A stretch of 64,000 bases of DNA from an uncultured Acidimicrobiaceae bacterium (GTDB lineage: Bacteria; Actinomycetota; Acidimicrobiia; Spongiisociales; UBA5794): assembly GCA_964579415.1 (NCBI GenBank), contig CAZOGW010000002.1, positions 14,612 to 78,611 on the forward strand. Direction: 5' to 3'. The notes under the pieces are model-generated. The model did no database searches. It saw only the letters and a program-made list of their open reading frames with translations, and had not been told where the DNA came from. The first letter of the stretch is position 1; every line of letters starts with the position of its first letter. Shown here in pieces: positions 15,837 through 54,466 of the stretch. The translations under genes and the position numbers were made by a program.

Positions 15837-17963
15837 TCAGGGTCCGATGCGAGTGAGCGTTCGGTCACCGGGGTCGCCATCGACGAGGAGGATGTCGATC
15901 TGGTTGCTGCCACTCACCAGGCTGCTCGGAGGCAGGAGGACATCGAACAGCTCTGGGTCGTCCGCCGACTGGTGAGATCTCGTCACCGCCACCACGACCC
16001 CGTTGACGCCCACTGCGAGCAGCGCGGGATCCGACCCTACCTCTGGACGTTCCAGGGTGCCCCTGATCATGATGGGGAGGACCGCGGCGGAGATATCGAC
16101 GTCGGCGAGCGCCTGGGCGCCCTCCGCCGACGCCACCAGCGGAGAGGTTCCGGAGGGGAACTGGTCGACGGCGACACCGAGAAGGTCGGCGGTGCCGTCC
16201 GGGACCAGGTCGTACGGAGTGCCGCCACGGAAGATCTCCACCTTGCGAGCGGCGGCGGCCAGCTTCTCCTCGCCACCGGCCCCGAAGTCGACCGTCCCAC
16301 CGCCGACGATGGTGCTCCCGCTTCGCTCCGGCCGGTCTGTGGCGAGGAGGGATGTCCCCTCCACTTCCCAGGGGAGGGCGAGGCCGATGGCGTCCGCCAT
16401 GGTGGGAAGGATGTCGTGGATCTCGGCGCGGTAGTCGTCGATGCCGCCGGTTTCCTGACGAGGGGTCTTGATGAACAGCGGGATGGCGGCGATCTCGCCG
16501 ACGCTGTCCTCGGTGGCGGCGCGCCGGTTCTCCACGTCGGGGCGGAACACGATGCCGTGGTCGGCGGCGACTACGAGCAGGGTCTCGTCGTAGATACCGA
16601 GAGCCTCGAGCCGGGCGATGAGCCGCCCGATCAGGGTGTCGACGAACTGGACCTGGAGGAGGTGACGCTGGTACACCTGGTTCACCGGCCACGGGTCGCT
16701 GAGCCACGTGTTCCCGTCAGCGCCGAGTTGGGGTCGCGGCGGCACGAAACTCTGCCCGTCGGGCAGGTACTCCCAGCGGCCATGGGGGAGCATCACGTGG
16801 ATGAAGTCGAGCGTCGGACGCTCACCGCGCACATCGATGCCGTCGACGAACCCCTCGAACGTCGCCTTGCGACCGGCGCGGACCGCTTCGTTGAAGAGCG
16901 CCCGCACCGCGTCCGGATCCGAGAACCCGGCAACGGGTTCCGCCGGCACATCAGCGACCTCTGCGAACGCCCCCCATGCCTGGTCGATGGGGGGAAGGGA
17001 CCGGGTGAGGTCCTCGGGAAGGAGCATGTGGGCGGCCACAACCCGCAGATCCGCGGCCATGGCCCGCCATCTCTCCCGATTCGGGACAGGATCGAGCGGG
17101 GACTCCTCGCACACCAGCGGGGGGCACAAGGCGGTGATCGGCTCCATGGCGTCCACGTCGTAGACGCCGCCGAGAAGCGTGAACAGGTTGCGGGGATGGT
17201 CGAAGGCGGTGGGGGTCTCCTCCAGGTCGGGCGTATAGCCGGTCAGTGCCGCCGGGACAGCCCACTGCGTCAGCCGCGCCGTGGTGACGGCGTTGCGGTA
17301 CCAAGTGGCGTCGCCGGCAAGGCGGGCGAAGGCGGGATAGAGGTCGGACTGCAGCTCGCCCTCACCGTCGATGAGTGAGGCCACCGGGAACTCGTCGAAC
17401 ATCACCATCACGATGGGTGGGGGATCGGCGACGACTACGCCCGCCACGGCCACCGTGTCGGAGGCGGTGACGAGACGGGAGGCGGGAGAGAGAAAGAGAA
17501 AGAACGCCGGTACCGCCAGGACGGCCACCGACCCGAACACGAGCAGGGATCTCACCGGCTCGAACCTGAAGTAGGCCACCGCCGAGACCAGCCCGAGGAG
17601 GAACGCCAGCAACAGCTGCACCGGCCCCGGGAGCGAGCCCAGCGGAGTATGCCTCAGGATCACGGCGGCAAGCACCCCGGCGAGGACGGTGAGCACCGCT
17701 CCGTGAAACAGGCGGCCCGCCGTGCCGTTCAGCGAGTATGCACACAGGACGACGAGGCCCACCAGGATGGGCAGGAGGATCCCGGCGACAAGCGCCAGCA
17801 GGACCACCTCGGCTCGGGTGGCGTCAGCGGCCACGAAGAATTCGGGGTTGTCCCCCAGCAGGTTGAGGACGGGCTGCACAATGCCCAACACGAGCAAGGT
17901 GGCACAGGAGGTGATGATCTCGACAGGCCCGATGTCTCGCCCCGCCGGAGGGGCCTCAGCCAT
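15837..17963 (-). CDS. Polytopic membrane protein with an extracytoplasmic alkaline-phosphatase-superfamily (LtaS/sulfatase-like) domain
   Basis: Five or six N-terminal TM helices, then MVMFDEFPV...VVAADHGIVF, typical of LTA-synthase/phosphoethanolamine-transferase-like enzymes. Start taken at MAEAPPAG; an alternative ATG lies at 17990. Confidence 0.6.
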   Translation of the reverse strand: MAEAPPAGRDIGPVEIITSCATLLVLGIVQPVLNLLGDNPEFFVAADATRAEVVLLALVAGILLPILVGLVVLCAYSLNGTAGRLFHGAVLTVLAGVLAAVILRHTPLGSLPGPVQLLLAFLLGLVSAVAYFRFEPVRSLLVFGSVAVLAVPAFFLFLSPASRLVTASDTVAVAGVVVADPPPIVMVMFDEFPVASLIDGEGELQSDLYPAFARLAGDATWYRNAVTTARLTQWAVPAALTGYTPDLEETPTAFDHPRNLFTLLGGVYDVDAMEPITALCPPLVCEESPLDPVPNRERWRAMAADLRVVAAHMLLPEDLTRSLPPIDQAWGAFAEVADVPAEPVAGFSDPDAVRALFNEAVRAGRKATFEGFVDGIDVRGERPTLDFIHVMLPHGRWEYLPDGQSFVPPRPQLGADGNTWLSDPWPVNQVYQRHLLQVQFVDTLIGRLIARLEALGIYDETLLVVAADHGIVFRPDVENRRAATEDSVGEIAAIPLFIKTPRQETGGIDDYRAEIHDILPTMADAIGLALPWEVEGTSLLATDRPERSGSTIVGGGTVDFGAGGEEKLAAAARKVEIFRGGTPYDLVPDGTADLLGVAVDQFPSGTSPLVASAEGAQALADVDISAAVLPIMIRGTLERPEVGSDPALLAVGVNGVVVAVTRSHQSADDPELFDVLLPPSSLVSGSNQIDILLVDGDPGDRTLTRIGP

Positions 17964-20961
17964 ATGTGTTGCCGTCGCAGTCCATGGCACGACCAGCCAG
18001 CAGGGGGCGCAGCAGGTCGGAGATCTGCTGTGCCCGGTGAGCGAAGGTGTGGTGCCCGAGAACCAGATCGCGGCCCCGGCGGGCGCGTTCGGTCCGCGAC
18101 CAATCGTTGCCGAGGAGGTCGCCTACGAGGCCGGCGAGGTCGTCGGTGCCGGAGTAGGTGTCCACCACGCCGTCGAACAGAGCACCGAGACCCTCCACGA
18201 GGTCGGACACCACGACGGCGCCGCTGGCCAACGCGTCGAAGACCGCGGGGGCCACGATGCCGTGCTCCGCCAGCTCCGGCAAGTGACGGTGAACGACGAC
18301 GCCCGCCGAGGCGTACATCTCGGCGAGTCGGCCCTCCCAGGCCGGTGGCTCGACGTCCTCGACGGCGTCGCCGTCCTCGCTGGTGACCGGCTCTCCGGCG
18401 GCAGGCGCCTGCTCTGTGGATATCGAAGCCCCGGTGACGTAGACGACCTCTGCGGTAAGGCCCGGATCGGGCTCGGCGCTACCGAACTGCGTGCCGTCGG
18501 CGGCGAACGGCAGGTGGACGACAGGCACGCTCGCCTCCGCCGCCAGTCGCTCCGCGGCGCGTGCCGACGCGACACAGACAAGGTCGTACCTCTCACACTC
18601 CTGAGGGGTGACCTCGCCGGCGTGGCTGGTGATCCAGAGCACGTTGACCTGGGCGCTCTTGGGTGTGTACCGGACCGCTCCGCGGAGGTGGACGACCACG
18701 TCGACATCCTGCCGGTCTTCCCTGTCCCAGTCGGGGAGGAAGTGGATCTCACCGGCGAACCCCTGCGTTTCCATCGCCCGCAACAGACTGCGGGCGACGT
18801 GGTGGTCGTTCGAGCCGGCCGCCTCCTCAGCATCGATGGCGGCCACCTTGGCCGCCACGCGGGGCCGCTCCACCGTGGCCATGGCCAGCTCGGCGAACTC
18901 GCGGGCGCGCTGGCCGTAGGTGTGACGCTCGAGGACCGTGGCGCGCAGCTTGTCCGCCAGTTCGCGACGCGCCGCCTCGTCGCCGAGGTAGCGGTCGAGA
19001 AGTTCCCGCAGCTCCCGCCCGTCACGGTAGGTGGGTAACAGCCCTCCGAACAGCTCCGCGGATCCGATCGGGTTGTTGGACACGACGAGGGTGCCGCAGG
19101 CGAGGGCATCGAAGACCCTGCTGTTGACGAACCCGTGCGGGAGGGTGTGGTGGGCGGTGTCGTCGAGCAGAATGTCGACCGACCGGTACACGTCCGGCAG
19201 GAGTTCGTAGGGAAGGTGCCCTCGCCAGTAGCGGAGCGCCAGCGGTTCCTCCCGCCAGTTCTTGCCGAAGAGGAGGAATCGCTCCCCGGTACGGACGTCG
19301 AGGTCGCCCAGGACGCTCCGACCGAAGCCCCAGTTGTTGCCGGTGAACGCGTAGTCGGCACGAAACGTAACCGAAGCCGCTCCGGGCTGGAAACGCTCCG
19401 GGTTCGTGGCGAGGGGTAGCACCGGGGGCTCACGCAGGGCGAACCTTGCCAGTGCCTCGGCGGCGAGGTGGCTCGACGCGACCACCTGGTCGTAGGCGTC
19501 GAACCATGGGTGAGACATCCAGCGCTCCACCCAGTTACGCACCCAGGCGATGGTTACAGCTCCTGTCGGTGCTCGCCTTACGTCGAACGAGTCGAGCAAC
19601 CCGATGACGACGTCCACGTCGTCGGGCAACTCGTACCAGCGGTGCCCGCGCCGCTCGGCGTACACGACCTCCCAGCCCTGGGCGGCGAAAGCGTCGCCGA
19701 GTTCGTGGGCCGTGTACCAGTCGCCCCAGCCCTTGGTGACATCGTCCTCGGTGATTGTGATGGCGACCTTGGGGGGCGAGCCGCCGGCCCACACACCCTG
19801 CCCGCCGAGGCGGGCCCTCCTCACCGAGCGGGACACCAGGGGTCCCCACGTCTCGGCATACTGTCGCCAGTTGCCCATGTGGTTGATGCGGGCTACATCC
19901 CGGGCGAGGCCGCGCCTGGTAGAAGACTCGGCGTGGAACAGCACCGCCTCTCCGGCCAGGGCGATGCGGCCGTGGCGCCGCAGCTTGAGACAGAGGTCCA
20001 GGTCCTCGCACCCGTACACGTAGCCCGGAGTGAATCCTCCCACCGCCTCGAAGCCGCTCCGGGTCACCAGGAGTGCCGCCCCGGTGGCCGCCGCCACCTC
20101 GATCGTCTCAACGAGTGCCGGGTCGGTGGGGTCGGACCATTCGATGTTGGTGGCGTGAGGGGCTCCCTCGCGGAAACCGAAGCGGATCCCGCGGTGTTGA
20201 ACGGTGCAGGCGGTTCCTCCCTGGCCGGTTTCACGATGCACCATGAGCGCCCCCACGGCCACCCATCCCCCGCCGCCGCCGAGGGTGGCCACCATCGCTC
20301 CCAGCCAGTCGTCGGTGATCGGCTCGACGTCGTTGTTGAGGAACAGGAGCAGGTCCCCCCCTGCCAGTTCCGCCGCCTGGTTGTTGCCCTCGGAGAACGA
20401 AGCGTTCTCCTGGTTCCTCACCACTCGCAGCGGGAAACTCCAGTCGCTACCGAGGACATCGGCGGTGTCGTCACCGGACGCGTTGTCCACGACGACGACC
20501 TCAAAGGAGCGGTACCGGGTGGCATCGAGCGCCGGGAGCAGCCGTCGCAGGTGGTGGGCACCGTCGCGGGTGAGGATGATGATGGTCACCAGCGGGCCTG
20601 ACACCGGGTGGCGCGCCGGGCGCAACTCGGCGATCCGCCCGGCCACGTCCTCCCGGGACTTCCTGGCCGGGACCGCTCTTGTCATCGCGGGCGCGGGGAC
20701 CGGATCGGCGGCAACGGGCTTCTTCCGCCCTCGCGCCAGATCAAAGAGGGGACGGAGCGGGCGGGTCAGTGCGAGCGACAGCCGTACGATGCGCCGCCCG
20801 GCAAGACGCTCGTAGGAGCGCTGCGCCGCCTCGGCGACGCGCTCCGCCGACCGGGCCTGCGCCGCCAGGTCGGCGAGCTCCTCCTTCAGTCTGATGTTCT
20901 CGCGCTGCAGCGCCTCCGGGGGCGGCGTAGCACCGGTCGGCAGGGGGTGATCGTCGGGCAT
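17956..20961 (-). CDS. Giant multidomain glycosyltransferase: N-terminal coiled coil, a GT2 domain, then two GT-B (GT4-like) domains
   Basis: GT2 domain: IIILTRDGAHHLRRLLPAL...FEVVVVDNASGDDT...LLFLNNDVEP. GT4-like domain: HTLPHGFVNSRVFDALACGTLVVSNN...LLDRYL. The coiled coil ends in the RRIVRLSLALTRPLRPLFDLARG motif. Confidence 0.75.
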   Translation of the reverse strand: MPDDHPLPTGATPPPEALQRENIRLKEELADLAAQARSAERVAEAAQRSYERLAGRRIVRLSLALTRPLRPLFDLARGRKKPVAADPVPAPAMTRAVPARKSREDVAGRIAELRPARHPVSGPLVTIIILTRDGAHHLRRLLPALDATRYRSFEVVVVDNASGDDTADVLGSDWSFPLRVVRNQENASFSEGNNQAAELAGGDLLLFLNNDVEPITDDWLGAMVATLGGGGGWVAVGALMVHRETGQGGTACTVQHRGIRFGFREGAPHATNIEWSDPTDPALVETIEVAAATGAALLVTRSGFEAVGGFTPGYVYGCEDLDLCLKLRRHGRIALAGEAVLFHAESSTRRGLARDVARINHMGNWRQYAETWGPLVSRSVRRARLGGQGVWAGGSPPKVAITITEDDVTKGWGDWYTAHELGDAFAAQGWEVVYAERRGHRWYELPDDVDVVIGLLDSFDVRRAPTGAVTIAWVRNWVERWMSHPWFDAYDQVVASSHLAAEALARFALREPPVLPLATNPERFQPGAASVTFRADYAFTGNNWGFGRSVLGDLDVRTGERFLLFGKNWREEPLALRYWRGHLPYELLPDVYRSVDILLDDTAHHTLPHGFVNSRVFDALACGTLVVSNNPIGSAELFGGLLPTYRDGRELRELLDRYLGDEAARRELADKLRATVLERHTYGQRAREFAELAMATVERPRVAAKVAAIDAEEAAGSNDHHVARSLLRAMETQGFAGEIHFLPDWDREDRQDVDVVVHLRGAVRYTPKSAQVNVLWITSHAGEVTPQECERYDLVCVASARAAERLAAEASVPVVHLPFAADGTQFGSAEPDPGLTAEVVYVTGASISTEQAPAAGEPVTSEDGDAVEDVEPPAWEGRLAEMYASAGVVVHRHLPELAEHGIVAPAVFDALASGAVVVSDLVEGLGALFDGVVDTYSGTDDLAGLVGDLLGNDWSRTERARRGRDLVLGHHTFAHRAQQISDLLRPLLAGRAMDCDGNTYG

Positions 20962-21029
20962 GCCGGGGAGTCTAAGTGGGCCGGAGCGACCGGCCCATCG
21001 CCACGGTGTGCCGTGTCGGGCCGATCACA

Positions 21030-21100
21030 CCTACGGTCGAGCGCTCTTCGGCGAGGAATCGGGCGCCATCATGCGCGGGATATCTCCATGGGACAGGACA
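21030..21100. other. Degenerate duplicate of the 5' end and leader of the nucleotide-sugar dehydrogenase gene (gene-start remnant)
   Basis: 21041-21090 (gctcttcggcgaggaatcgggcgccatcatgcgcgggatatctccatggg) aligns at about 80% to 15729-15780, which holds the ATG and first 11 codons of the dehydrogenase plus the upstream ccc[a]ggatat motif. The remnant reading frame terminates after 13 codons. Confidence 0.6.
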
Positions 21101-21123
21101 CGAATGAAGGGGCCACCACCGTG

Positions 21124-23520
21124 TCAGGGGATGCTCACCTTCACCTCGCATCTCGTCGCCGTGTCCGTGCCGGAGCCGCCGTGGCAGGTGTCGGTGTTGC
21201 CGCCTCCGCGGAGGTCGTCGGCGCCGCTGCCGCCGTACAGGGCGTCGGCGCCGGCTCCACCCCGGATCAGATCGGGACCGGCGTTCCCGTAGAGCGTGTC
21301 GTTCCCTGCCCCGCCGTCGACGGTGTCGCTGCCGTCGCCACCGCGCAGTATGTCGCCCCCGGCCTCCCCGTGAAGGGTGTCGTTACCCTTGCCTCCGTAC
21401 AGAAGGTCGTCGCCGGTGCCGCCGAGGATCAAGTCGTTCCCGGTGTTTCCCCAGAGGCGGTCATGCCCTCCCCCGCCGTGCAGGTAGTCGCTGTCGCTGC
21501 CGCCGCGCAACCGGTCGTCCCCTCCGGCACCACGGAGCGTGTCGCGACCTGTGCCGCCCCCCAGCTTGTCGTTCCCGGGACCCCCGTAGAGCAGGTCGGC
21601 GTCGGAGCCGCCGCTGATCTCGTCGTCGCCCCGCTGGCCGTAGAGCCGGTCGACCCCGCCCTCACCGTAGAGGCGGTCCTTGCCGGTGCCGCCGAGGATC
21701 AGGTCGTCGCCGACCCCGCCATGGATCGTGTCGGCTCCGCTCCCCCCGAAGACCACGTCGTTGCCGGGACCGGCGTAGACGCGGTCGTTGCCGGAGCCTC
21801 CGCAGATCACGTCGTTACCGCCGCGGCCGTGGATCACATCGTGACCCCGCCCCGCCCAGATGATGTCATTCCCCTTGGTGCCGTAGATGACGTCGTTGCC
21901 CGAGGTGCCCAGGATGGTGGCCCGCTCTCTGGTACACCACCACGCCTCGTTGTCGGCGGTGGCCGTATCGCACTTCCACCCGGCGGGGACGAACCACGAT
22001 GTCGGCGAGGCGCCAGGGATCGCCGTGTTGCCCAGGTACACGTCGAGGACGCCGTTGGTGCGGAGCAGGAACAGGTCGTCACGGCCGTCGCCGTCGAAGT
22101 CGTTGGCGAGGACGTCCGCCCAGGCGCCGGAGGCGGGCAGCGTCCTCGTCTCGTTGACTGTGCCATAGCCGTTGAGCAGGATGCGAACCTTGGCCCGGTC
22201 GATCGCATACAGGTCGGGCAGGTCGTCGACGTTGCGGTCGCCGAGGGTGAACTGCCACGAGCGAGTGTCGCCGAGCGGGGTTGCGGTGTCGGCGAGCTTG
22301 GACTTGTAGCCTCCCTTGCCGTTCCACACCTCGACCCGGGTGGCGGTCGCCGAACGGCGGATGACGAACAGGTCCTGCACGCCGTCGCGGTTGTGGTCTC
22401 CCAGCAGGTAGGCGGCGCCGGCCGAAGGCTTGACCGCGGTCGACAACTTCACGGTCTTCTTGAACTCCTTGGAGCGTAGAGCCACCTCCATCGCCACCGT
22501 GGAGCCTTTGCTGTCGATGAACCAGATGTCGGTGCGGCCGTGGCGCTCGTAGTCGGCGTAGGCGACCAGGCGACCACGCCGCGTCACCGCCGGCACCACG
22601 AACGACGAGGCGGCGCAGGCCCGGTGCAGTTGGTGGGTGCGGGAGAACTCCACCAGGAGGGAGGTGCCGGCGTCGCCCACCTCTACGACATCGGCGAGGC
22701 CGTTGCCGGTGAAGTCGGCCAACGCCTGCGGCTTGCCCGCCTCCGTGGGACCGATGGCGGCGACGTCGTAGGTGGCGGCGAGGGTGGTGAAGTTGGCCGG
22801 GCTGGTGGTGGGCGGGTACGGCTTGGGGACGGTGCCGTAACCCGGGGTGGCGTTGGGGCCCATCCAACTGAAGTGCATGGTGTCCTTGATGTCCATCCAG
22901 TCGCCGCCCCAGCAGAACCCGGCGTCGCGCCACGCCTGGACGAACCAGTCCGGCATGTCGGTGATCTTCGTGTTGTCGGAGCGGTAGGGGTTGGTGGTCC
23001 AGTTGATGTCGATGGTGGCGCCGAAGGTGTGGTTGGAGATGCTGAAGGAGCCACCCACCGTGCGCGGCACGTAGGTGGCGGTATCGCCGCTGCGGATGCG
23101 GTAAGGCTTACCGGGATTGGCGGCGGCAGCGGCGACGAGGTTGGCGCCTGCCTTCTGGAACGCCGGGAGCGCCCGCTCGTGGACCCTCACCACCTTGCCG
23201 CCGCTCAGCGGCACGGTCCAGTTGACCAGTTCGCTCGAGAGCTGGCCGATGGTGCGCCCGAAGAAGTCGCCGCGGTACCCGCGTATCCGGTCCGGCGACG
23301 ACAGCGGGCCGGAGCGGGTATGGAGCGGGTTCGACGTCGACGGGGGGCCGCAGCCCGCCGACTCGTTGAAGGAGGGGAACCCGCCACCTTCCCCGGCGAG
23401 TCCTTCCCCCAGCCCGTCGCCATGCGCCGGGTGATAACCCTCATGCTCGGGGGGGATCGGGTCGTCCGCAGGCTGGGACCAGGCCGGAGGCGCCGTCATC
23501 GTCACCAGGCCGAGCGCCAT
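21124..23520 (-). CDS. Secreted three-part protein: LAS/M15-like (VanY-type) D,D-peptidase domain, FG-GAP/VCBS repeats, then C-terminal RTX beta-roll
   Basis: Signal-peptide-like MALGLVTMTAPPAWSQP; the ORF is open further upstream, so the start is uncertain. Peptidase-like region SGDTATYVP...HTFGATIDINW...DTMHFSW. FG-GAP motifs (DFTGNGLADVV, GDHNRDGVQDLFVI, NDFDGDGRDDLFLL). About 25 GGxGxD repeats and a terminal CHGGSGTDTATRCEVKVSIP cap. Confidence 0.7.
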   Translation of the reverse strand: MALGLVTMTAPPAWSQPADDPIPPEHEGYHPAHGDGLGEGLAGEGGGFPSFNESAGCGPPSTSNPLHTRSGPLSSPDRIRGYRGDFFGRTIGQLSSELVNWTVPLSGGKVVRVHERALPAFQKAGANLVAAAAANPGKPYRIRSGDTATYVPRTVGGSFSISNHTFGATIDINWTTNPYRSDNTKITDMPDWFVQAWRDAGFCWGGDWMDIKDTMHFSWMGPNATPGYGTVPKPYPPTTSPANFTTLAATYDVAAIGPTEAGKPQALADFTGNGLADVVEVGDAGTSLLVEFSRTHQLHRACAASSFVVPAVTRRGRLVAYADYERHGRTDIWFIDSKGSTVAMEVALRSKEFKKTVKLSTAVKPSAGAAYLLGDHNRDGVQDLFVIRRSATATRVEVWNGKGGYKSKLADTATPLGDTRSWQFTLGDRNVDDLPDLYAIDRAKVRILLNGYGTVNETRTLPASGAWADVLANDFDGDGRDDLFLLRTNGVLDVYLGNTAIPGASPTSWFVPAGWKCDTATADNEAWWCTRERATILGTSGNDVIYGTKGNDIIWAGRGHDVIHGRGGNDVICGGSGNDRVYAGPGNDVVFGGSGADTIHGGVGDDLILGGTGKDRLYGEGGVDRLYGQRGDDEISGGSDADLLYGGPGNDKLGGGTGRDTLRGAGGDDRLRGGSDSDYLHGGGGHDRLWGNTGNDLILGGTGDDLLYGGKGNDTLHGEAGGDILRGGDGSDTVDGGAGNDTLYGNAGPDLIRGGAGADALYGGSGADDLRGGGNTDTCHGGSGTDTATRCEVKVSIP

Positions 23521-23720
23521 GGCAATCCCCACTACCCGCCGGCCACCACGGCGCAGTCCTTGATGAAGCTGTCGGCTCGTCACCCAGGCGAGGCTAACCC
23601 AGGTGGCGATATAGGCGACTTCCTCGCGGGCAGGCCCGTGCCCGGAAGCGGTTACTCCACGATGCCCTCCCCTGCCACTACAATCCACCCGCCGCCGCCG
23701 GGCCATCCCCCGGGAGAACG

Positions 23721-26700
23721 ATGCACCGTTTCTTCAAACCTGCCATCCGCCCACTTCTGGAGGCGACGAAGCCTTCTCTGGTGGTGGAGATCGGCAGCGA
23801 CTGGGGCCACGGCACCGAACTGCTCGCCACCTGGTGCCACGCCAACGGGGCTGCCCTGCACATCGTGGACCCGCTCCCCAAGTACGACGTGGACGAGTGG
23901 GCGCAGCGATGGCCGGGATCCGTCACCTTCCACCTGGACTTGTCGCTCAACGCACTGGTCGATCTCGACGCCCCCGACATGGTGTGCATCGACGGAGACC
24001 ACAACTGGTACACGGTGTACCACGAGTTGGAGCTCCTGGCACGCTCGGCCAGCGAGGCGGGGCGCCCCTTCCCGCTGACGCTGTTCCACGACGTGGCATG
24101 GCCCTACGGCCGCCGCGACCTCTACTACGACCCGGCCACGATCCCCGAGGCTCACCGCCATCCCTACCGCAAGGGAGGGCTGGTCCCCGGCCAGCGAGCG
24201 CTGACGGAGAGCGGCTTCAACGACCATCTCGACAACGCCCTCCACGAGGGGACGCTCCGCAACGGGGTTCGCACCGCCGTCGAGGACTTCGTCGCCGACC
24301 GCCCGCACCTGGCGCTCCACGTCGTTCCCGGCCTGCATGGACTCGGCATCGTCGTCGACGACGCCGCCGATGCGGCCGTGCACGAGGCCATCGCCGACGT
24401 CACCGGCCCAAGCGGGCTGATGCGGGTGATCGAAGCCGTCGAGGAGGACCGGCTGGCACGGCTGCAGAGGCTGTCCGAGATGCAGAAGGAACTCGTGCAG
24501 GAACGGGAGCGCGCCGGGCGGACCCGGGCCGAGGCTGCGCACCACGCCGAGCGGGCAGAGGCGCTGGCGGCACAGGTGAGTGCGCTCGGCGAGAACCTCG
24601 CCGAGGCGCGGGCACAGGCCGCGGAACTGGAGACCCTCCTCACACGGACCCGGCTCCGGGTCAGGAAGGAGAAGCGGCTGGCGGCGAGACGGCAGCGAGC
24701 ACTCGACAAGAAGGTCCGGGCGCTCGACAGGTCCCAGCGGTCGCTCGCCACCGTCCGCAGCAGGCTCGATGCCGCCGAGGCGGAGTCACGTGCCCTCAAG
24801 CGTCGGCTCGGGGCTGCCGAGGCCGACTACTCGCGGCTCCGCAACCGGCGCTCGGTGCGCCTCACGTTGCGGATGGCCTCCCTGTTCCGCCCGCTCTTCC
24901 GGCTTCGCCGCGGCCAGGGGTCCCGCAAGACGTCGACGCCGGCGACGTCGGCACGGGACGACGGCGCCAAGGAGGGCAAGCCAGGTAGCCGACCGCCCGC
25001 CGGGGCGACCGCGCCCGCCGACCCGGCGCCCGTAAGGCTGACGCCGTCGACCGCCGCAGCAGCACAGCCATCGCCGGAGGCCGCCGGCCGGCGCCGTCCA
25101 CGACGGATCAGGTCGCCCCGGGCAGCCCGCGCCGGCCGGGCTCTCTGGGCGGGCTTCGGCGGCATCGCCTCCGCCGAACTGGACAAGCTGGTGCAGGCAC
25201 GGCACGACTCCCCCGCCGAGGCTTCCCGTGCCGCCCTGGAACTGGCCAGGTGGTGGCGCTACCACGGCGACCTCGACAGGGCGCTGGACCTGGCTCGCCT
25301 GAGCCGGGCGGCACGGCCTGACGCCCCCTGGTCACGGGACGGGCAGTTCCTCGAAGCAGACGTCCTCCACGAATTGGGGCTTGCCGAAGAGGGCCGGTAC
25401 CTGCTCGACCACATGCTGGAGGGGGCACCCGACGACCCGCACCTGTTGTTGCGCCTTGCCAACACCTTCGCCTCACCGGCGGGGCCTGCCGGCGATCGGG
25501 ACGACCTGACCCGGCTCGCCATCATCAATCAGGTCCTCGCCAACGCCGGGCTGTCTTCCCTCCGTCTCGCCGACGCCGGCAGGGGTTTGCGCATCGACAA
25601 CCTCGCCGGGACCGGCCCCGAGCCGGTGCCGCACCAGGGCCCGGAGCCGCTGGTGTCGGTGGTCGTCCCGGCGTTCAACGCCTCCGACTGGTTGGCGACC
25701 TCGGTCGGTTCCATCCTGGCTCAGACTTGGCCGCGGATCGAGGTCGTCATCGTCGACGACGCCAGCAGCGACGGGACCGTCGAGGTGGCGCAGGAACTGG
25801 CAGCCCGGGATCGGCGGGTCCGGGTGCTCCGGCAATCGACCAACCGGGGCGCCTACGCGGCACGCAACCGGGGGGTGGCGTCGGCAACAGGCGACTTCGT
25901 CACCGTCAACGACTCCGACGACTGGTCCCACCCGGAGCGCATCGCCCGCGAGGTGCGGGCCCTGGTGGACGATCCCGACATCGTGGGTGTGATGCCCCAC
26001 CGCAGCCGCGTCACCGCCGATCTGGTGTTCATCGAGCCCACGGTGCGGTCCCGCCCCGAACGGGTCATCCCCGACATCTCGTCGCTGATGGTGCGCCGCG
26101 CCACCCTCGAAGAGGTGGGGCCGTGGGACGAGGTCCGCGCCGCCGGCGACCACGAGTTCGGCAAGCGGCTCGAGGCGTACTACGGCCCGGAGGCGGTGTT
26201 ACGTATCCATCCCGAGGCGCCGATGTCGCTCTCCCTGCGCCTCCCCGAGTCGATCTCGGCGGCGGGAGCGACCTCCATCCTCTCCCGGCATCACGTCATC
26301 GGGGCTCGGCGTCTCTACCACCAGGCGCTGGCACACTGGCACGACTCGCCGTCGTTCCGGGAGTCGCTGCCGTTCCGACCGGGAGAACCGCGACCCTTCC
26401 CCGCGCCGCGACCGATCACCGACGGGGATCCGGGCGGCACCCGAACCCGTCCCGACCTGGTGTTCCTCTCCGACTTCACCCCGTCCGGGGCCACCGCCGC
26501 CGCCGTCGAGGAGCTGGCGGCACAGTCGTCGGCCGGGCTTACGACGGCGCTCGTCCACAACCCGTCCTACCACGGGCGCTTCCTCGACCCCATCAGCGCC
26601 CGGGTCTGGGACGCCGCCGGCAGCACCGCCCTGCTGCTCGGCAAGGACGAGCGGATCGACACCGATCTCCTCGTCATCCGGGATCCCTGGATCGCCGAGC

Positions 26701-27482
26701 ACTTCGTCGACGGCCTTCCCACCGTCACCGCCGCCCGCACCATCGTGGTCATCAACCGCCCACCGCACCGGTCGTCCGGGCGACCGGTCCCCGACCTGGA
26801 CACGGTGATACGCAACGTGCGAGCTCGCTACGGTGACCAGGTCGTGTGGTACCCCGGCGATCCGTCGCTACGGCGGTCCCTGGAGGAGCTACGAACCGGC
26901 GCCGCGGGCGGCATCCGCCTCGCCGCCGAGGATTGGGCCGACGTCATCGACGTCGACGCGTGGCGGGGACCGCTGCGCCGGGTCGACGGCCCCACGGTCC
27001 GGGTCGGCCTGAGCCGCCGAGGCGCCCAACCGGAAAGGCAGGTCGGCCTCCCGGATCTCTCGGCCCATCTGCACCACGGCGACGTCACCATCCACACTCT
27101 CGGAGAAGCCGAGTTCGGTGGCGGATCCCTGCCGGGTGCCGGGCCCGTCGATGACGCGGACCCGGTGAGGGACTTCCTCGACGGTCTCGACATCTACGTC
27201 CACCTCGACGCCTCCACCGGGACAACCGATCGGACCTTGCTCGCCGCCCTCGCCGTGGGTATCCCGATCGTGACCGGCACCGGCCTCGCTCCGCTGCTGG
27301 GCCCGGCGGCCGTCTACGCCGCGCCCGAGGATGTGCTCGACGCCATCTTCGACCTCCGTGACGACCCGCGACGGTACGAAGCGCAGGTCCGCAGCGGCTG
27401 GCGCCTCGTCGAGGAACGATTCAGCCACCAGGCCCACATCGAGCGCCTCGGCGAGCTACGCGCCGGAATCACCCTGCTCTGA
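23721..27482 (+). CDS. 1253-aa multidomain protein: class I SAM-methyltransferase-like N-domain, long coiled coil, GT2 glycosyltransferase domain, and a C-terminal GT-B-like domain
   Basis: N-domain: LVVEIGSDWGHGT...IDGDHNWYTVY (Methyltransf_24-like DGDH). Coiled coil: 260-400, ending in RSVRLTLRMASLFRPLFRLRRGQG. GT2 domain: LVSVVVPAFNASDWLATSVGSILAQTWPRIEVVIVDDASSDGT...DSDD. C-terminus: LDIYVHLDAS...LAALAVGIPIVTG. Confidence 0.7.
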   Translation: MHRFFKPAIRPLLEATKPSLVVEIGSDWGHGTELLATWCHANGAALHIVDPLPKYDVDEWAQRWPGSVTFHLDLSLNALVDLDAPDMVCIDGDHNWYTVYHELELLARSASEAGRPFPLTLFHDVAWPYGRRDLYYDPATIPEAHRHPYRKGGLVPGQRALTESGFNDHLDNALHEGTLRNGVRTAVEDFVADRPHLALHVVPGLHGLGIVVDDAADAAVHEAIADVTGPSGLMRVIEAVEEDRLARLQRLSEMQKELVQERERAGRTRAEAAHHAERAEALAAQVSALGENLAEARAQAAELETLLTRTRLRVRKEKRLAARRQRALDKKVRALDRSQRSLATVRSRLDAAEAESRALKRRLGAAEADYSRLRNRRSVRLTLRMASLFRPLFRLRRGQGSRKTSTPATSARDDGAKEGKPGSRPPAGATAPADPAPVRLTPSTAAAAQPSPEAAGRRRPRRIRSPRAARAGRALWAGFGGIASAELDKLVQARHDSPAEASRAALELARWWRYHGDLDRALDLARLSRAARPDAPWSRDGQFLEADVLHELGLAEEGRYLLDHMLEGAPDDPHLLLRLANTFASPAGPAGDRDDLTRLAIINQVLANAGLSSLRLADAGRGLRIDNLAGTGPEPVPHQGPEPLVSVVVPAFNASDWLATSVGSILAQTWPRIEVVIVDDASSDGTVEVAQELAARDRRVRVLRQSTNRGAYAARNRGVASATGDFVTVNDSDDWSHPERIAREVRALVDDPDIVGVMPHRSRVTADLVFIEPTVRSRPERVIPDISSLMVRRATLEEVGPWDEVRAAGDHEFGKRLEAYYGPEAVLRIHPEAPMSLSLRLPESISAAGATSILSRHHVIGARRLYHQALAHWHDSPSFRESLPFRPGEPRPFPAPRPITDGDPGGTRTRPDLVFLSDFTPSGATAAAVEELAAQSSAGLTTALVHNPSYHGRFLDPISARVWDAAGSTALLLGKDERIDTDLLVIRDPWIAEHFVDGLPTVTAARTIVVINRPPHRSSGRPVPDLDTVIRNVRARYGDQVVWYPGDPSLRRSLEELRTGAAGGIRLAAEDWADVIDVDAWRGPLRRVDGPTVRVGLSRRGAQPERQVGLPDLSAHLHHGDVTIHTLGEAEFGGGSLPGAGPVDDADPVRDFLDGLDIYVHLDASTGTTDRTLLAALAVGIPIVTGTGLAPLLGPAAVYAAPEDVLDAIFDLRDDPRRYEAQVRSGWRLVEERFSHQAHIERLGELRAGITLL

Positions 27483-45075: not shown

Positions 45076-46785
45076 TCAACGCTCCCAGGGCGACGCCACC
45101 GGGAAGTACTCGCCGAGGAAAGCTCCGAGCCGGGCCGCCGCCGCGGGCGGATCGGTCTCCCATCGTTCGGTGGCGTTGATGCACACGACGTCGAGGTCCC
45201 GGCCCAGCGAAACCCGGCGCAGGAAGGTGCCGAGGCGGCGGCTCCCCAGGTTCTGGTAGGCGATGCGCAGCTCGCCGGGCACGGCGCGCCCCGTGCTGAA
45301 TGCGTAGTGGTGGGCAAAGGCCGAGGCCACCGACAGGTCGTCGCTGCTGCGGAAGCGGTGGCGCGCCGTGGCCTCCATGGCCTCGGGGAAGCGCTCCTCG
45401 ATCTCGAAGAGGACGCTGCGCAGCAGCGGGTACGGGGCATGGTGCAGCTTGCGTCCCACCACCGAGCCGAACTCGCCCTCGATGAGTCGGCGCCCGGTGC
45501 GTGCCGCCGCGTCGGCGGCGAGCGCCTCGCCTGCGCCCCCGGCGGGAAGTGGGATGCGGGCCTCGCTCTCGAAGAACCGGCTCAGGCCGTTGGCGGTGAA
45601 GAAGGCCTCGGGGGTGAGCGGGCGACCCAGCAGCATGTCGTCGTTGAAGTACACGAAGTGCTCGGCGAGCCCCTCGATGTGGTGGAGCCGGGCCTCGATG
45701 GCGTGCGAGTTGAACGTGGGCAGCCAGTCGCCGGGGAAGATGTCGCGATGTGACACCACGGTGAGCCCGTCGTCGGGCGCCAGCCAGGCGGGGACCTGGT
45801 CGGCGGTGACCAGGTAGATGTGGCGCACCCACCCGGCGTTGAGCCACAGCGACCTCAACGAGTAGCGCAGCTCGTCGAAGGAGGCGAACCGGGAAGGATC
45901 CACGGCGTCGGCGGCGCGTGCGCTCCCCTGGGCCGGGGACCAGCGGTCGAACCGGTCCCGCCAGGTGGGATCGGAGCTGTCGACCCAGGTGTAGACCACG
46001 TCGATCGGGTCGCGGAACTGCAGCAGGCCGCGCCCCACCGGGAATGCCGTCAGGCCCGGGTAGTCGTTCCCCGCCACCGACTCGGTGGTGGGCTCGGCGG
46101 ACCGCTCGAAGCGGTTGAGGCCGCGGTGGCCGAGTCGCTCCATCCGGTCACCCGAAGCCGTCCAGAAGCTGATCAGGATTCCGTCGTCCGGGCCCACCAC
46201 CGCGTCGGGACCGATGCTCAGGCAGCGAAAGAGCACCCAGGACTCGGCGCGCCGGGCACGGCGGCGGGTGCCCCGCGCCCGCAGCAGCCCGGTGTGGTGG
46301 CGACCGCCCCGCCGCCACCGGAGGTACCAGGCCTCGGTGGGATCGGCCCCGCTCAGGGCGCCCAGGGCGGCAGCGCGGTCGCCGGCAGGGAGCCCGAAGT
46401 GGAGTCGGCCGCCGTCGGTGTCGACGAGGAAGGGATGCAGGCCGGCCCGCTCCAGGCGGGGCAGCAACGATCCTGCGAACCCGTGGGGCAACTCGGACCG
46501 GGGTCGGTCGATGGTGCCGGTTGCCACCCAGCGCCGCCACTCGCCGGTGGCGGCAACGGTGCGACCACGCCATGCCCGCGGCCCGCCGTTAGGTGGCAGC
46601 AGGCGGGCCGTCACCCGCTGCAGCGCGGCCCTCAGCTCGAGCCGCCACCTCTCGCCCAGCAGTCCCACCACCGGCTCGGGGAAGCGCCCGTCGAGGCGGC
46701 GCAACGCCAGCGCCCGGCGCAGCCGGCCGGCGACGGTGCGGAGCCGTGCGGTGAAGACGCCGGCTCCCTCACTCTTGGGAGTCAT
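45076..46785 (-). CDS. Stealth-family hexose-1-phosphotransferase (second paralog, no TagF domain)
   Basis: [46 protein letters not shown]...PTFNSHAIEARLHHIEGLAEHFVYFNDDMLLG. Confidence 0.8.
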   Translation of the reverse strand: MTPKSEGAGVFTARLRTVAGRLRRALALRRLDGRFPEPVVGLLGERWRLELRAALQRVTARLLPPNGGPRAWRGRTVAATGEWRRWVATGTIDRPRSELPHGFAGSLLPRLERAGLHPFLVDTDGGRLHFGLPAGDRAAALGALSGADPTEAWYLRWRRGGRHHTGLLRARGTRRRARRAESWVLFRCLSIGPDAVVGPDDGILISFWTASGDRMERLGHRGLNRFERSAEPTTESVAGNDYPGLTAFPVGRGLLQFRDPIDVVYTWVDSSDPTWRDRFDRWSPAQGSARAADAVDPSRFASFDELRYSLRSLWLNAGWVRHIYLVTADQVPAWLAPDDGLTVVSHRDIFPGDWLPTFNSHAIEARLHHIEGLAEHFVYFNDDMLLGRPLTPEAFFTANGLSRFFESEARIPLPAGGAGEALAADAAARTGRRLIEGEFGSVVGRKLHHAPYPLLRSVLFEIEERFPEAMEATARHRFRSSDDLSVASAFAHHYAFSTGRAVPGELRIAYQNLGSRRLGTFLRRVSLGRDLDVVCINATERWETDPPAAAARLGAFLGEYFPVASPWER

Positions 46786-47539
46786 ACGCTGCGAGCACCT
46801 CGTCCACCGTCCCGTCGAGATGGATCTTCCCCTGCTCGAGCCACATGGCGCGGCTGCACGTGGCCCGAATCTCGTTCATGTTGTGCGTCACCATGACGAT
46901 GGAGCCGGCGTTGGCCTGCAGGTCCCGGATCCGAGCCATGCTCTTGCGTTTGAAGGTACGGTCACCCACCGCCAGCGCCTCGTCGATGAACAGCAGCTCG
47001 GGTTGCTGCAGCGTGGCGATGGCGAACGCCAGCCGCGCCCTCATCCCCGACGAGTAGGTGCGCAGCGGCCGCCTCAGGGCCTCGCCCAGCTCGGTGAAAT
47101 CGGCGACTTCCTCGATGCTCTCGCGGATCTCGCTCATCGGCATTCCCATGGCGAGGCAGCCGATTGTGATGTTGCGGTAGCCGGACAGCTCCGGCTTGAG
47201 GGCTGCCCGCACCGTGAGCAGCACCGGCTCGGAGCGGACCAGGACCGACCCCGATGTCGGTTGCAACAGGCCGGCGAGGGCACGCAGCAGCGTGCTCTTG
47301 CCCGACCCGTTGGAGCCGACGATGCCGACCACCTCGCCGACGTCGATCTGGAACGTCACTCCCTTGACCGCGTGCACCTCGTCGGAGACGCGGCTGCGGA
47401 AGCCCCCGCTCATCATCCGGCGCAGGGTGAACGATTGCTCCTCGTAGACCTTGAACCGCACGTGGATGTCGTCCGCCACGATGGCCGGTGTCCCGGTGGC
47501 GATGCTCCGCTCGGTGACGACGGCGCGCTCAACTGCCAT
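46769..47539 (-). CDS. ABC transporter ATP-binding protein of the polysaccharide/teichoic-acid exporter type (TagH/KpsT/Wzt-like, no C-terminal carbohydrate-binding extension)
   Basis: Walker A GIVGSNGSGKST, signature YSSGMRARLAFA, Walker B LLFIDEA, and the H-loop. Overlaps the permease gene by 11 nt. Confidence 0.85.
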   Translation of the reverse strand: MAVERAVVTERSIATGTPAIVADDIHVRFKVYEEQSFTLRRMMSGGFRSRVSDEVHAVKGVTFQIDVGEVVGIVGSNGSGKSTLLRALAGLLQPTSGSVLVRSEPVLLTVRAALKPELSGYRNITIGCLAMGMPMSEIRESIEEVADFTELGEALRRPLRTYSSGMRARLAFAIATLQQPELLFIDEALAVGDRTFKRKSMARIRDLQANAGSIVMVTHNMNEIRATCSRAMWLEQGKIHLDGTVDEVLAAYDSQE

Positions 47540-48371
47540 ATCTGGCCTCCCCCCGGCGGAACCAGATGATGCCCCCCAGGCCCAGCACCAGCGTCCACAG
47601 CACCGCGGCGGCGGCTTCGACCCAGAGGACCTCCATTCCCAGCACCGCCCAGCGGTACAGCGCCAGGTAGTCGAACACAGGGTTGGCGATGAACAGCCAC
47701 CGCAGCGACTCGTGCTCGAGGTAGGCGTAGACGTAGAAGATCACACCCGAGCCGTAGAAGAGCAGCCGGAACAGGAACGGCAACAGGTTCTCGATGTCCC
47801 GGTAGGCATGGTTGGCCCGAGCCGCGATCAGGGCGCAGCCGGTGTTGAATACCACCTGGAAGGCGATGAGCGGGATCAACACCAGCCAGGTGAGGCGTAC
47901 CGGCTCGTCGGTGAGCACGGCGACGGCGAGGAACACCAGGACGCCGGGCAGGAACGCCATCGCCTCGGTGACGACGGCCGTTATCGGGACCATGGCGCGA
48001 GGGAAGCTGATCGACCGCATCAACCCCTGGTTCTGGATCAGGCTCTTCGCCCCTGCCATGGTGCTCTTCTGTGTGAAGCGGAAGACGAACACACCGACCG
48101 CCAGGAAAGCGATGAAGTTGTCCACGCCGCGGGTGACCTCGAGGAGCACGCCGAAGACCAGGTAGTAGACGGCGACGCCGAGGATGGGGTTGAGCAGGTG
48201 CCACAGATTGCCCAGCACCGTGTTCATGTTCTGGGAGCGCAGCTCGTTGCGCGGCACATGGAACATGTACTCCCGGCAGGCCCACAGGCGTTGGAGGTAC
48301 GCTCTCCAAGACGAGTAGGTGCCAGGAGGATGGAGCTGACTCGACGCAGCCCGCGTCGTCATGACTGACAC
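47529..48371 (-). CDS. ABC-2-type exporter permease (TagG/KpsM/Wzm-like)
   Basis: Six TM helices. The N-terminal ELRSQNMNTVLGNLWHLLNPI is typical of Wzm/TagG. Confidence 0.8.
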   Translation of the reverse strand: MSVMTTRAASSQLHPPGTYSSWRAYLQRLWACREYMFHVPRNELRSQNMNTVLGNLWHLLNPILGVAVYYLVFGVLLEVTRGVDNFIAFLAVGVFVFRFTQKSTMAGAKSLIQNQGLMRSISFPRAMVPITAVVTEAMAFLPGVLVFLAVAVLTDEPVRLTWLVLIPLIAFQVVFNTGCALIAARANHAYRDIENLLPFLFRLLFYGSGVIFYVYAYLEHESLRWLFIANPVFDYLALYRWAVLGMEVLWVEAAAAVLWTLVLGLGGIIWFRRGEARYGS

Positions 48372-52757: not shown

Positions 52758-53594
52758 TCAACCTCGGGCGATCTGCGACGCCACCACTTCGGGGAGGGAG
52801 TCCTTCCAGTGGGGGAGGTCGGGGAGGCCCAGCGGGGCGCGGCGCTCCGAGGCGAGGACGGAGTAGGCGGGGCGGGGAGCGGGACGGGGGAACTCCTCTG
52901 TGGCGCAGGGGACCACCAGGGTCGGGTCGAGGCCGGCCAACCGGACCGACTCGGCGGCGAGCCCGTGCCAGGTGGTGACACCTTGGTTGGTCAGGTGCAG
53001 GATCCCGGAGACGCCGGCGTCCAGCGCCGCCAGGGTGGTGGCGGCGAGGTCGTCGGCGACGGTGGGGCACCCGTGCTGGTCGTCGACAACCCGCAGCCCG
53101 CCCGATCGCGCCAAGCGGAGCATGGTGGCGACGAAGTTGGGGTGGGTTCCTGAGATCACCCACGAGCTGCGCACCACCAGTGCCCCCGGGTGTGCCGCCA
53201 GGGCACGCCGCTCCCCATCCCGCTTGGTGCGGCCGTAAGCGTTCAGCGGCGCGGTGACGTCGCCCTCGACGTAGGGCCCACCCTTGGTGCCGTCGAACAC
53301 GTAGTCGGTGGAGAAGGTGACCAGCGGAATGCCGAGGCGGGCGCACACCTGTGCCATCTCCTCGACGGCCTCGGCGTTGACCAGGTGGGCGGTCTCCTCG
53401 TCGGTCTCGGCGGCGTCCACCGCGGTGTAGGCGGCGCAGTTGATCACGGCCTCGGCGCCGGAGTCCTCCACCCAGGGACCGATGGCGGCCGTGTCGACGA
53501 GATCGAGCTCGGAACGGTTGGGGAAGCGGGCCCCGGGGAGCAGGCCCCGAAAGGCGGTGCCGAGCTGGCCGCTGCCCCCGGTGACGACGATCAA
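52758..53594 (-). CDS. rmlD: dTDP-4-dehydrorhamnose reductase
   Basis: [12 protein letters not shown]...YxxxK (YGRTK) short-chain reductase of the RmlD type. A 4-nt overlap with rmlA. Confidence 0.85.
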
Positions 53595-54466
53595 AGCCCC
53601 TCCCGCTCCTCGGCGACGATCTCCTCGAGGTAGGCGCGGTAGGCCGACCCGGGCATGGCGTCCACCAACTCGCCCAGATCGTCGAGGCTCACATAGCCGC
53701 AGCGGAAGGCGATCTCCTCCAGGCAGGCGATCTTGCTGCCCTGCCGGTGCTCGACGGTGGCGATGAAGTTGGCGGCGTCGAGGAGGCTGTCATGGGTACC
53801 GCTGTCGAGCCAGGCGATGCCGCGGCCGAGGCGCTGCACCCGCAGGGCTCCACGTTCCAGGTAGTGCCGGTTGAGGTCGGTGATCTCCAGTTCCCCGCGG
53901 CCCGACGGCTCCAGGCTGCGGGTCGTCTCCACCACTTCGGCGTCGTAGAGGTACAGGCCGGGGACGGCGTAGCGGGATCGGGGCTGGCGGGGTTTCTCCT
54001 CGAGCGATATGGCCCGCCCCTCGGCGTCGAACTCGACGACTCCGTAGCGCTCGGGGTCCCGCACCGGGTAGGCGAAGACCAGCGCCCCGCTGGTGAAGGT
54101 GCGCGCCGCCTCGGCGAGCCCCATGGTGCCGTAGAAGATGTTGTCCCCGAGGATGAGGGTGACCGGCTCCCCGCCGATGAAGTCGGCGCCGATGAGGAAC
54201 GCCTCGGCGATGCCGGCGGGCCGGTCCTGGGTGGCGTACGAGAAGGTGACGCCCCACTGCGACCCGTCGCCCAGCAGCGATCGGAACCGCGCCTGGTCGA
54301 CCGGTGTCGTGATCATGAGGATGTCGGTGATCCCGGCCAGCATCAGCGTCGACAGCGGGTAGTAGATCATCGGCTTGTCGTACACCGGCTGGAGTTGCTT
54401 GGAGGCGACCCGCGTCATCGGGTCGAGCCGGCTCCCGGCGCCTCCGGCGAGGACGATGCCCTTCAT
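53591..54466 (-). CDS. rmlA: Glucose-1-phosphate thymidylyltransferase
   Basis: [18 protein letters not shown]...[17 protein letters not shown]...ILGDNIFYG. Confidence 0.9.

Follow-up and report, generated by a model that had tools for sequence, protein, structure and literature searches.

The stretch analyzed here (64,000 nucleotides, positions 14,612 to 78,611 of contig CAZOGW010000002.1 from an uncultured Acidimicrobiaceae bacterium; hereafter the window) is a large cell-wall glycopolymer region by its Pfam domain calls, with a GC content of about 70% (0.69–0.73). It encodes two giant glycosyltransferase (GT) proteins, A (1001 aa) and B (1253 aa), each of which carries a conserved basic motif directly behind a predicted coiled-coil stalk, and this motif is the subject of our analysis. 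The two genes are divergently transcribed, A from the minus and B from the plus strand, with the gene of a secreted M15-peptidase/FG-GAP/RTX protein between them. Around them, domain searches place GT4 enzymes, a UDP-glucose dehydrogenase, an LtaS-like sulfatase, a cytidylyltransferase, two Stealth proteins, TPR-LicD and TPR-TagF-like proteins and a Bac_transf initiating transferase. Coordinates of the main features are given in the table.

Table. Features of proteins A and B and of their glycan locus, in positions of the window.
Feature	Position	Strand	Evidence or score
Protein A, 1001 aa: short stalk, motif, linker, GT2, two CgeB-like GT-B modules	17956..20961	-	
A stalk, residues 15-55, predicted single helix with heptad pattern	20797..20919	-	
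A motif, R56-K80, RRIVRLSLALTRPLRPLFDLARGRK	20722..20796	-	36.7 bits
A linker, residues 81-102, Pro/Ala/basic, predicted disordered	20656..20721	-	
Protein B, 1253 aa: O-methyltransferase, long stalk, motif, linker, weak TPR-like region, GT2, weak GT-B-like C-terminus	23721..27482	+	
B methyltransferase domain, residues 1-228, Methyltransf_24, cation-dependent O-methyltransferase fold	23721..24404	+	Pfam, AF2, Foldseek
B stalk, residues 230-374, one predicted continuous 145-residue helix	24408..24842	+	
B motif, R376-G400, RRSVRLTLRMASLFRPLFRLRRGQG	24846..24920	+	
B linker, residues 401-490, Ala/Arg/Pro/Gly-rich low complexity	24921..25190	+	AF2 pLDDT <50
B GT2 (GT-A) domain, residues ~645-860	25653..26300	+	Pfam
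ABC exporter (context)	46769..48371	-	ABC_tran; hydrophobic segments in permease
ABC ATPase, 256 aa	46769-47539	-	ABC_tran match 59-189
ABC permease, 280 aa	47529-48371	-	~6 transmembrane/hydrophobic segments
rmlD, rmlA, rmlC and fused rhamnosyl-O-methyltransferase/TylF methyltransferase	52758..57191		Pfam

Protein A has the domains that a sequence-only reading of the window had proposed for it, a Glycos_transf_2 (GT2) domain at residues 126–244 followed by two CgeB-like Glyco_trans_1_2 modules (Pfam), and its AlphaFold2 (AF2) model reaches a predicted local distance difference test score (pLDDT) of 89.6. All AF2 models used here are of monomers, and B was modeled as residues 1–460. The same reading had assigned to both proteins a coiled coil of about 100–150 residues, which is correct for B (helix 230–374) and not for A, whose stalk comes to about 41 residues, with an AF2 helix at 15–55 (pLDDT about 88), a heptad signal at 16–56 and weak leucine-zipper/ZapB matches in Pfam. 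The motif of A follows at once (the translation reads ...YERLAGRRIVRLSLALTRPLRPLFDLARGRK at R56–K80) and is modeled as a helix at 57–77 after a break at G55/R56, over which pLDDT drops from 77 to 50; beyond it pLDDT lies below 50 at 77–97 and disorder is predicted at 78–102, after which the GT domains begin. Since at most 21 codons separate the ATG of A from a stop codon upstream, A has no hidden N-terminal domain, and since its 41-residue stalk has an empty far end, A alone cannot be a ruler. A Foldseek search with the model of A returned generic GT-A matches only and was uninformative on the motif. We regard A as probably the polymerase.

Protein B begins with a methyltransferase domain whose Foldseek neighbors are CCoAOMT-like O-methyltransferases, including Mycobacterium hassiacum MeT1, a mycobacterial sugar O-methyltransferase. 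Its stalk is predicted with a pLDDT of up to 97, would be about 215 Å long if extended, and shows a heptad signal at 269–376 as well as a weak SMC coiled-coil match at 236–377 (E 4.6e-4). The motif at R376–G400, where the translation reads ...YSRLRNRRSVRLTLRMASLFRPLFRLRRGQG, is followed by the linker and by a GT2 domain (Glycos_transf_2 at 646–762, E 2.3e-35). The methyltransferase-like and GT2 assignments of the earlier reading stand for B (Methyltransf_24 and GT2 in Pfam), and the GT-B domain claimed for its C-terminus appears as a weak Glyco_trans_1_2 match (E 0.047). Neither A nor B has a transmembrane segment.

That the two proteins share the motif, as first noticed from the sequence, is confirmed. 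Both strings are present, and BLASTP aligns A and B best over the end of the stalk together with the motif (40.8 bits, E 4e-7), a match that outranks even the GT2 domain common to the two proteins (E 3e-5); the excised segments are 39% identical over 57 aa (E 4e-8), and the similarity reaches some 20–35 residues into the stalk beyond the motif. A profile built from A homologs matches B at 39.5 bits, and in a six-frame scan of the window only B (39.4 bits) and A (36.7 bits) score. It could be argued that this is a chance likeness of Arg/Leu/Ala-rich low-complexity sequence in a GC-rich genome, given the biased composition and the comparable hydrophobic moments that shuffled versions of the motif frequently reach. 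However, the E-value of 4e-7 was obtained with composition adjustment, no other six-frame site in the 64 kb exceeds 8.5 bits, 63 loci that lack the motif (each up to about 23 kb, about 1.2 Mb in total) contain no match of this type at or above 18 bits, and several columns are invariant across about 50 diverse sequences. The BLASTP E-values, the homolog profile and the six-frame scan together exclude both chance and compositional bias, and we consider this explanation effectively refuted. A third coiled coil had been suggested in a TagF-Stealth fusion (42196–44964, minus strand); there the 22 residues quoted hold three heptad-spaced leucines, the heptad scan gives no signal and the motif is absent, and the TagF half itself stays below threshold (Glyphos_transf, E 0.0025).

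The motif is not covered by existing annotation. No Pfam entry and no PDB chain matched it at E up to 10 (the latter with either motif profile), no NCBIfam entry covers it, and its strings retrieved only noise, with no mention found, in the searchable full-text literature. A motif-only profile search of a 5.8-billion-protein collection passed nothing, the query being too short for a database of that size. Three other explanations of such a sequence were considered and rejected. A twin-arginine (Tat) signal peptide is incompatible with the placement of the motif, which starts only at residue 376 of B and is C-terminal in stand-alone proteins, and with its hydrophobic stretch, which is interrupted by Arg every 3–4 residues. 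A transmembrane anchor was rejected because the top 19-residue Kyte-Doolittle means (1.77 in A, 1.84 in B) both fall inside GT domains. A PilZ-like RxxxR cyclic di-GMP switch, suggested by the string RRSVR, does not fit the SWR variant described below, in which the first Arg is not conserved.

Homologous loci, where the sequence-only reading had proposed to look for the motif, do carry it. The core of the A family (GT2 and two CgeB-like GT-B modules) is found in at least 380 homologs and at least 586 genomic loci, the nearest genomes being metagenome-assembled genomes (MAGs) of Acidimicrobiia/Actinomycetota at no more than 56% identity. About 79 of the 120 best A homologs have the motif (85 regular-expression matches, about 6 of them visibly false), and it sits 950–985 residues from the C-terminus whatever lies upstream, be it nothing, Methyltransf_24, a Methyltransf_11-type domain, a polysaccharide pyruvyl transferase or an extra GT2. 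The consensus among A homologs is RRYERLRNRRSVRLALALARLARPLFRAVRRLRRRR (Y.RLR.RRSVRLAL.LA.L.RPLFR.VRR.R). Columns L6, R9 and V12 are invariant and R10, L16, A19 and P24 are at least 90% conserved in about 50 diverse sequences; in A itself, L53, R56, V59 and L63 are at least 90% conserved among homologs, and the position just before RR favors N, S or G. The RRSVR variant is restricted to Actinomycetota and Acidimicrobiia relatives. Distant A homologs from Solirubrobacterales, Chloroflexota, Proteobacteria and methanogens start at about residue 90–125 of A and lack the motif. The C-terminal core of B (weak TPR-like region, GT2 and C-terminal domain) belongs to a large family distinct from that of A, and the RRSVR variant is absent from all 150 of the best cluster representatives of this core.

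Two further observations concern the A family. Its GT2 plus double CgeB-like architecture extends to methanogens (Methanobacterium and Methanosphaera MAG contigs, loci L040, L042, L043 and L058), at 31–35% identity over about 870 residues and without stalk or motif. In nine A homologs a PF04230 polysaccharide pyruvyl transferase replaces the methyltransferase at the far end of the stalk, a domain swap which hints that terminal pyruvylation may act as a cap in these systems; the pyruvyl-transferase homologs are P0074, P0082–P0089, P0100 and P0113.

Wherever it occurs, the motif lies directly after a coiled coil, before the GT modules in fusions and at the C-terminus in stand-alone methyltransferase-stalk proteins. 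Homologs of the first 440 residues of B are mostly of the latter kind (350–470 aa, Methyltransf_24 plus stalk), and they connect the motif with a second variant, S.SWR.T.PLR, which occupies the same place in homologous stalk proteins. Ten of 120 homologs of the B N-terminus end with the RRSVR variant, P0272 and P0274 terminating within a few residues of it, and 10 of the 120 end with a strict SWR variant. Among 51 aligned Methyltransf_24-stalk proteins, nearly all have S-x-x-W-[RK] in the motif column; more broadly, 58 of 81 such proteins carry a core of the form S..W[RKQ] or R[RK].V[RK] in the C-terminal tail (median distance from the end, 48 residues), and only 2 of 81 carry one within their first 230 residues. 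Alignments place RRSVR under SRSWR, and B-family representatives with coiled-coil N-extensions read LL.S.SWR...P.R....R..RGR at the aligned position (e.g. LLQSRSWKLSAPVRWLGGLARGQG). The proposed equivalence of the RRSVR and S.SWR cores rests on this identical position in homologous proteins.

The SWR variant leads to WbdD, the terminator of Escherichia coli O antigens O9 and O8. WbdD of O9 (E. coli HS, 708 aa) has EKIHRSRSWRMTKG at 592–596 (S592–R596, in the context ...LRQEIEKIHRSRSWRMTKGYRYLG), followed at 612–641 by a strongly amphipathic stretch with a hydrophobic moment (muH) of 0.67–0.73, and WbdD of O8 (E. coli IAI1, 425 aa) has LHNSRSWRITQPLRWL from 308 (SRSWR at 308–312, 28 bits, in the context ...QQMADLHNSRSWRITQPLRWLSLQRQLLRQEGAKVRARRAAKKILRK). 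In both, S-R-S-W-R stands directly at the end of the coiled coil and no domain model covers it. Previous studies have described the WbdD coiled coil as a ruler of about 200 Å, and the region after it as holding a membrane-locating amphipathic helix and a site that recruits the polymerase WbdA (PMC3447403, PMC3482155, PMC5082667, PMC6286764, PMC11231755); S-R-S-W-R stands where this region starts. Within the E. coli O9 and O8 loci the motif occurs only in WbdD; as WbdA lacks it, recruitment in the prototype is not motif-to-motif. The two WbdD genes lie at 17966–20092 (minus strand) of locus L085 (O9) and 23456–24733 (minus strand) of L086 (O8), and both products are labeled "class I SAM-dependent methyltransferase" in RefSeq.

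A second line of evidence is the recurrence of the motif within single loci. Four loci encode two or three motif proteins each: the window (2), L001 (3), L002 (3) and L003 (2). L001 has, within 10 kb, a Methyltransf_24-stalk-motif protein, a GT with the motif at about residue 290–328 and a 505-aa protein. In L002, which is on the same contig as L005, an A-like 935-aa GT and a 758-aa GT2 plus GT4 protein carry the motif near the N-terminus, and a 277-aa methyltransferase carries it at the C-terminus. Long terminator-stalk-polymerase fusions are the sole motif carriers in their loci. Loci L087–L089 are each cut by a contig end on one side and thus say little about co-occurrence. The silence of the 63 motif-less loci under the same profile shows that the additional copies are not noise. 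By eye, motifs within a locus are no more alike than motifs of different loci. The 505-aa protein of L001 (15516–17033, plus strand) has no Pfam match and the motif forms its last residues (...RRSVRLALGLSQVFRPLFRAVRSWKKKR, then stop); it would be an enzyme of unassigned family using the same element.

Taken together, we propose that the motif is a membrane-proximal foot, led by membrane association, which co-localizes the terminator-ruler-GT fusion B with the polymerase A; we put the probability of this reading at roughly 0.55. The 145-residue helix of B would form a parallel coiled coil, probably trimeric like that of WbdD, keeping the N-terminal O-methyltransferase about 200 Å off the membrane. 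After a helix break, with N, S or G before RR, would come the RRSVR core, a Leu/Ala-rich stretch with a single Arg stripe, RPLF and a basic tail, which as the foot of the stalk may rest on the membrane's cytoplasmic face or be embedded in it, may be bundled with the feet of partner chains, or may do both. The disordered Pro/Ala-rich linker may then let the GT domains reach a polyprenol-linked acceptor, the foot of A on its 41-residue stalk would set the polymerase at the base of the ruler, and only chains long enough to reach the methyltransferase would be capped. By analogy with WbdD, the motif probably holds A and B together at the membrane. The sequence-only reading had already suggested a shared docking or membrane-association element; recurrence in several enzymes of one locus fits such a role in docking or localization, as does the position equivalent to that in WbdD. 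Membrane binding, oligomeric state, the association of A with B, terminator activity and any effect on chain length are inferred.

Several observations weigh against an element led by membrane association. Motif 18-mers have a muH of 0.61–0.71 and a net charge of +5, and the 25-residue core has a mean charge of +7.2 in 50 homologs, but the amphipathicity is modest against composition-matched shuffles, only about 1.3 standard deviations (SD) above them. The helical moment peaks at 103–105 degrees per residue (0.63–0.65), compared with 0.52 at 100 degrees and 0.19–0.29 at 90 and 120 degrees, so the period of the Arg stripe is heptad-like, and packing between helices accounts for it no less well than does a helix resting flat on lipid. 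A narrow, heptad-spaced Arg stripe on a Leu/Ala-rich helix is compatible both with an in-plane helix that snorkels and with a packed bundle whose Arg residues point outward. The invariant R, V and P are also unusually specific for a generic lipid-binding helix. Peripheral wall-polymer GTs can have in-plane amphipathic membrane anchors, such as the C-terminal helix of TagA, and such anchors usually conserve a pattern and not residue identity. The motif resembles them in being a short basic amphipathic helix on soluble GTs that act on a polyprenol-linked acceptor and have no transmembrane segment; it differs in its invariant residues, in being joined to a coiled coil and in its heptad-like periodicity.

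Structure prediction and solubility point in the same direction. The motif had been expected to be helical and not disordered, and AF2 supports this for A only: in B the motif is low-confidence coil (pLDDT about 40–45), the helix stopping at 374 just before RRSVR. Moreover, WbdD 1–600 is soluble although it includes SRSWR (PMC3447403). By itself, the conserved core therefore does not bind membrane, and binding would need the sequence after it; the window motif as first defined spans both parts, the RRSVR core and the following basic hydrophobic stretch. The solubility of WbdD 1–600 would suit a purely structural element, a coiled-coil end-cap or trigger in which a helix stop and a short capping helix set register or oligomeric state and which has no part in localization or partner choice. 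Such a cap would explain why the motif always stands directly behind a coiled coil, why the helix breaks exactly before RR in both AF2 models (ending at 374 in B and 55 in A) and why N, S or G is favored there. A cap, however, would not need some 25 more residues at a net charge of about +7, and it leaves unexplained both the recurrence on stalks of very different length within one locus and the retention of the motif as a C-terminal tail in stand-alone proteins. We therefore consider a structural cap by itself unlikely.

The membrane-proximal foot is also weakened by loci in which the motif stands alone, several having only one motif protein within 10 kb. The profile link to WbdD is weak as well, since the SWR profile finds in the window only 8.6 bits at LTRPLRPLFDLARGRKKP of A and nothing in B. 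Finally, the ATPase of the window's ATP-binding cassette (ABC) exporter (256 aa) has no C-terminal extension beyond ABC_tran and lacks the carbohydrate-binding module that reads the terminal cap in O8, O9a and O12 and that links capping with export in O8/O9a; a coupling of the two is not implied here.

Part of the evidence would suit a different emphasis, in which stalk end and motif are mainly a protein-protein assembly element and the feet of different enzymes zip into a hetero-oligomeric bundle. The 41-residue stalk of A would then pair with the base of the B stalk, and the membrane would be contacted by other parts, for example through the lipid-linked substrate, the GT domains or the ABC transporter. 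Two or three different motif enzymes per locus in the window, L001, L002 and L003, together with long single-chain fusions that carry the only motif of their loci, speak for such an element, and the A–B similarity extending into the stalk, the periodicity of packed helices and the invariance of specific residues favor it too. WbdA is recruited by the C-terminal region of WbdD (PMC3482155), and multiprotein complexes assembled on a coiled-coil protein have been described (Kelly 2024, PMC11231755). Yet the short-stalk homologs of L004 and L013, around which 10 kb contain no further motif protein, tell against docking, E. coli WbdA is recruited although it has no motif, and motifs of one locus show no evident matching in sequence. 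We regard a mainly protein-protein role as less likely than the foot. A broader form of this idea, which we offer tentatively, treats the motif at the coil end, with its variants S.SWR (Proteobacteria and others) and RRSVR...RPLF (Actinomycetota), as a portable assembly code: all its carriers in a glycan locus would join one membrane-bound hetero-oligomeric stalk bundle, the set of motif-bearing genes would define the polymerization-termination machine, and the core would be the heart of the WbdD C-terminal recruitment region. Candidate carriers would be polymerase GTs with an N-terminal motif and capping methyltransferases and enzymes of unassigned function with a C-terminal one.

Returning to the membrane-proximal foot, B is best read as a single-polypeptide terminator-ruler-GT of the kind of WbbB, the Klebsiella pneumoniae O7 protein and WbdD, acting in an ABC-transporter-dependent actinobacterial wall-glycan pathway. 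The comparison with WbdA/WbdD, first drawn from the sequence, applies to the layout of B, with its distal O-methyltransferase, 145-residue helix and proximal GT, and finds a counterpart in SRSWR at the WbdD coil end; it does not apply to A alone. Several features of the known rulers recur in the window: an extended coiled coil (B, not A alone), GT modules at the membrane-proximal end (GT2 and a weak GT-B-like region in B, GT2 and two GT-B modules in A), and a Wzm/Wzt-type ABC exporter. At the distal end B has an O-methyltransferase fold and A homologs have methyltransferases or pyruvyl transferases, which would be putative terminators. The ABC exporter, the rml genes and the methyltransferases of the locus lend support to a WbdD-like reading.

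Compared with the WbdD-WbdA systems of E. coli O9a/O8 (and K. pneumoniae O3/O5), the likeness consists of a terminator of the methyltransferase type that a long coiled coil carries at its distal end (about 200 Å in WbdD, a 145-residue helix in B), a conserved core at the coil end (SRSWR there, RRSVR here) that is followed by a basic amphipathic stretch, and a locus that depends on an ABC transporter; in WbdD, membrane binding and polymerase recruitment both fall to the region behind the coil (PMC3447403, PMC3482155, PMC11231755). The window proteins differ in that GT modules are fused downstream of the motif, in that V replaces W and R replaces S while the stretch from core to Pro is 4–7 residues longer, and in that the partner polymerase A brings a short stalk and a motif of its own, the motif being absent from WbdA. 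The methyltransferase of B also belongs to another Pfam family (Methyltransf_24), no carbohydrate-binding module is attached to the ABC ATPase, and the product would be an actinobacterial wall polymer, not lipopolysaccharide. The coiled-coil proteins of K. pneumoniae O12 (WbbB) and O7 share with B a distal terminator, a coiled coil and proximal polymerizing GTs, and in these systems extra GT modules come from separate proteins that join the complex (PMC11231755), a likeness drawn from domain order. There the terminators are a beta-Kdo transferase (O12) and a methyltransferase-kinase pair (O7), and the products are Gram-negative O antigens.

A few other features of the window deserve mention. 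The methyltransferase next to rmlC, rmlA and rmlD (55242–57191, plus strand) is a 649-aa fusion of an RMNT_CmcI domain, of the rhamnosyl O-methyltransferase type, with TylF, without stalk or motif; given this fusion, the polymer may bear more than one kind of O-methyl group. Three proteins with long arrays of RTX calcium-binding nonapeptides are encoded at 21124–23706 (minus strand, with M15 peptidase and FG-GAP domains, exactly between A and B), 9898–11154 (plus strand, no other domain) and 48634–49929 (plus strand, with a polysaccharide deacetylase domain). Convergent with B is a real gene masked in the list of open reading frames, at 27598–29253 on the minus strand; it encodes a sulfotransferase-like protein (Sulfotransfer_1, E 9e-6), and coding-like third-position GC content (0.81–0.90) is confined to the 3' part of the 1041-codon minus-strand frame in which it lies. 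Sulfotransferases are also present in the related loci L001, L002, L087 and L088. The stop of A overlaps the listed GTG start of the LtaS-like sulfatase gene (15837–17990, minus strand) by 35 bases (17956–17990), which reflects either translational coupling or a true sulfatase start further downstream.

For a few enterobacterial O antigens it is established that a coiled-coil ruler sets how long the ABC-exported glycan becomes; how the base of the ruler is fixed and how separate polymerases are recruited to it are structurally uncharacterized. Systems of this kind, in which the ruler has a region for membrane contact and recruitment, are already known. What is new is a conserved, unannotated signature at the position of the ruler base, common to the E. 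coli prototypes and many uncharacterized proteins, together with its actinobacterial variant, its presence on polymerase GTs themselves, unlike WbdA, and the fact that several enzymes of one locus can bear it. Hundreds of uncharacterized methyltransferase-stalk proteins bear the signature, as do giant actinobacterial GT fusions. Should the motif indeed be an anchoring or assembly element, it would be a sequence marker predicting which enzymes of a glycan locus share a complex, and it would offer a small target for mutagenesis that is testable in E. coli O9a. It also suggests a handle for engineering the polymer length of Gram-positive wall glycans.

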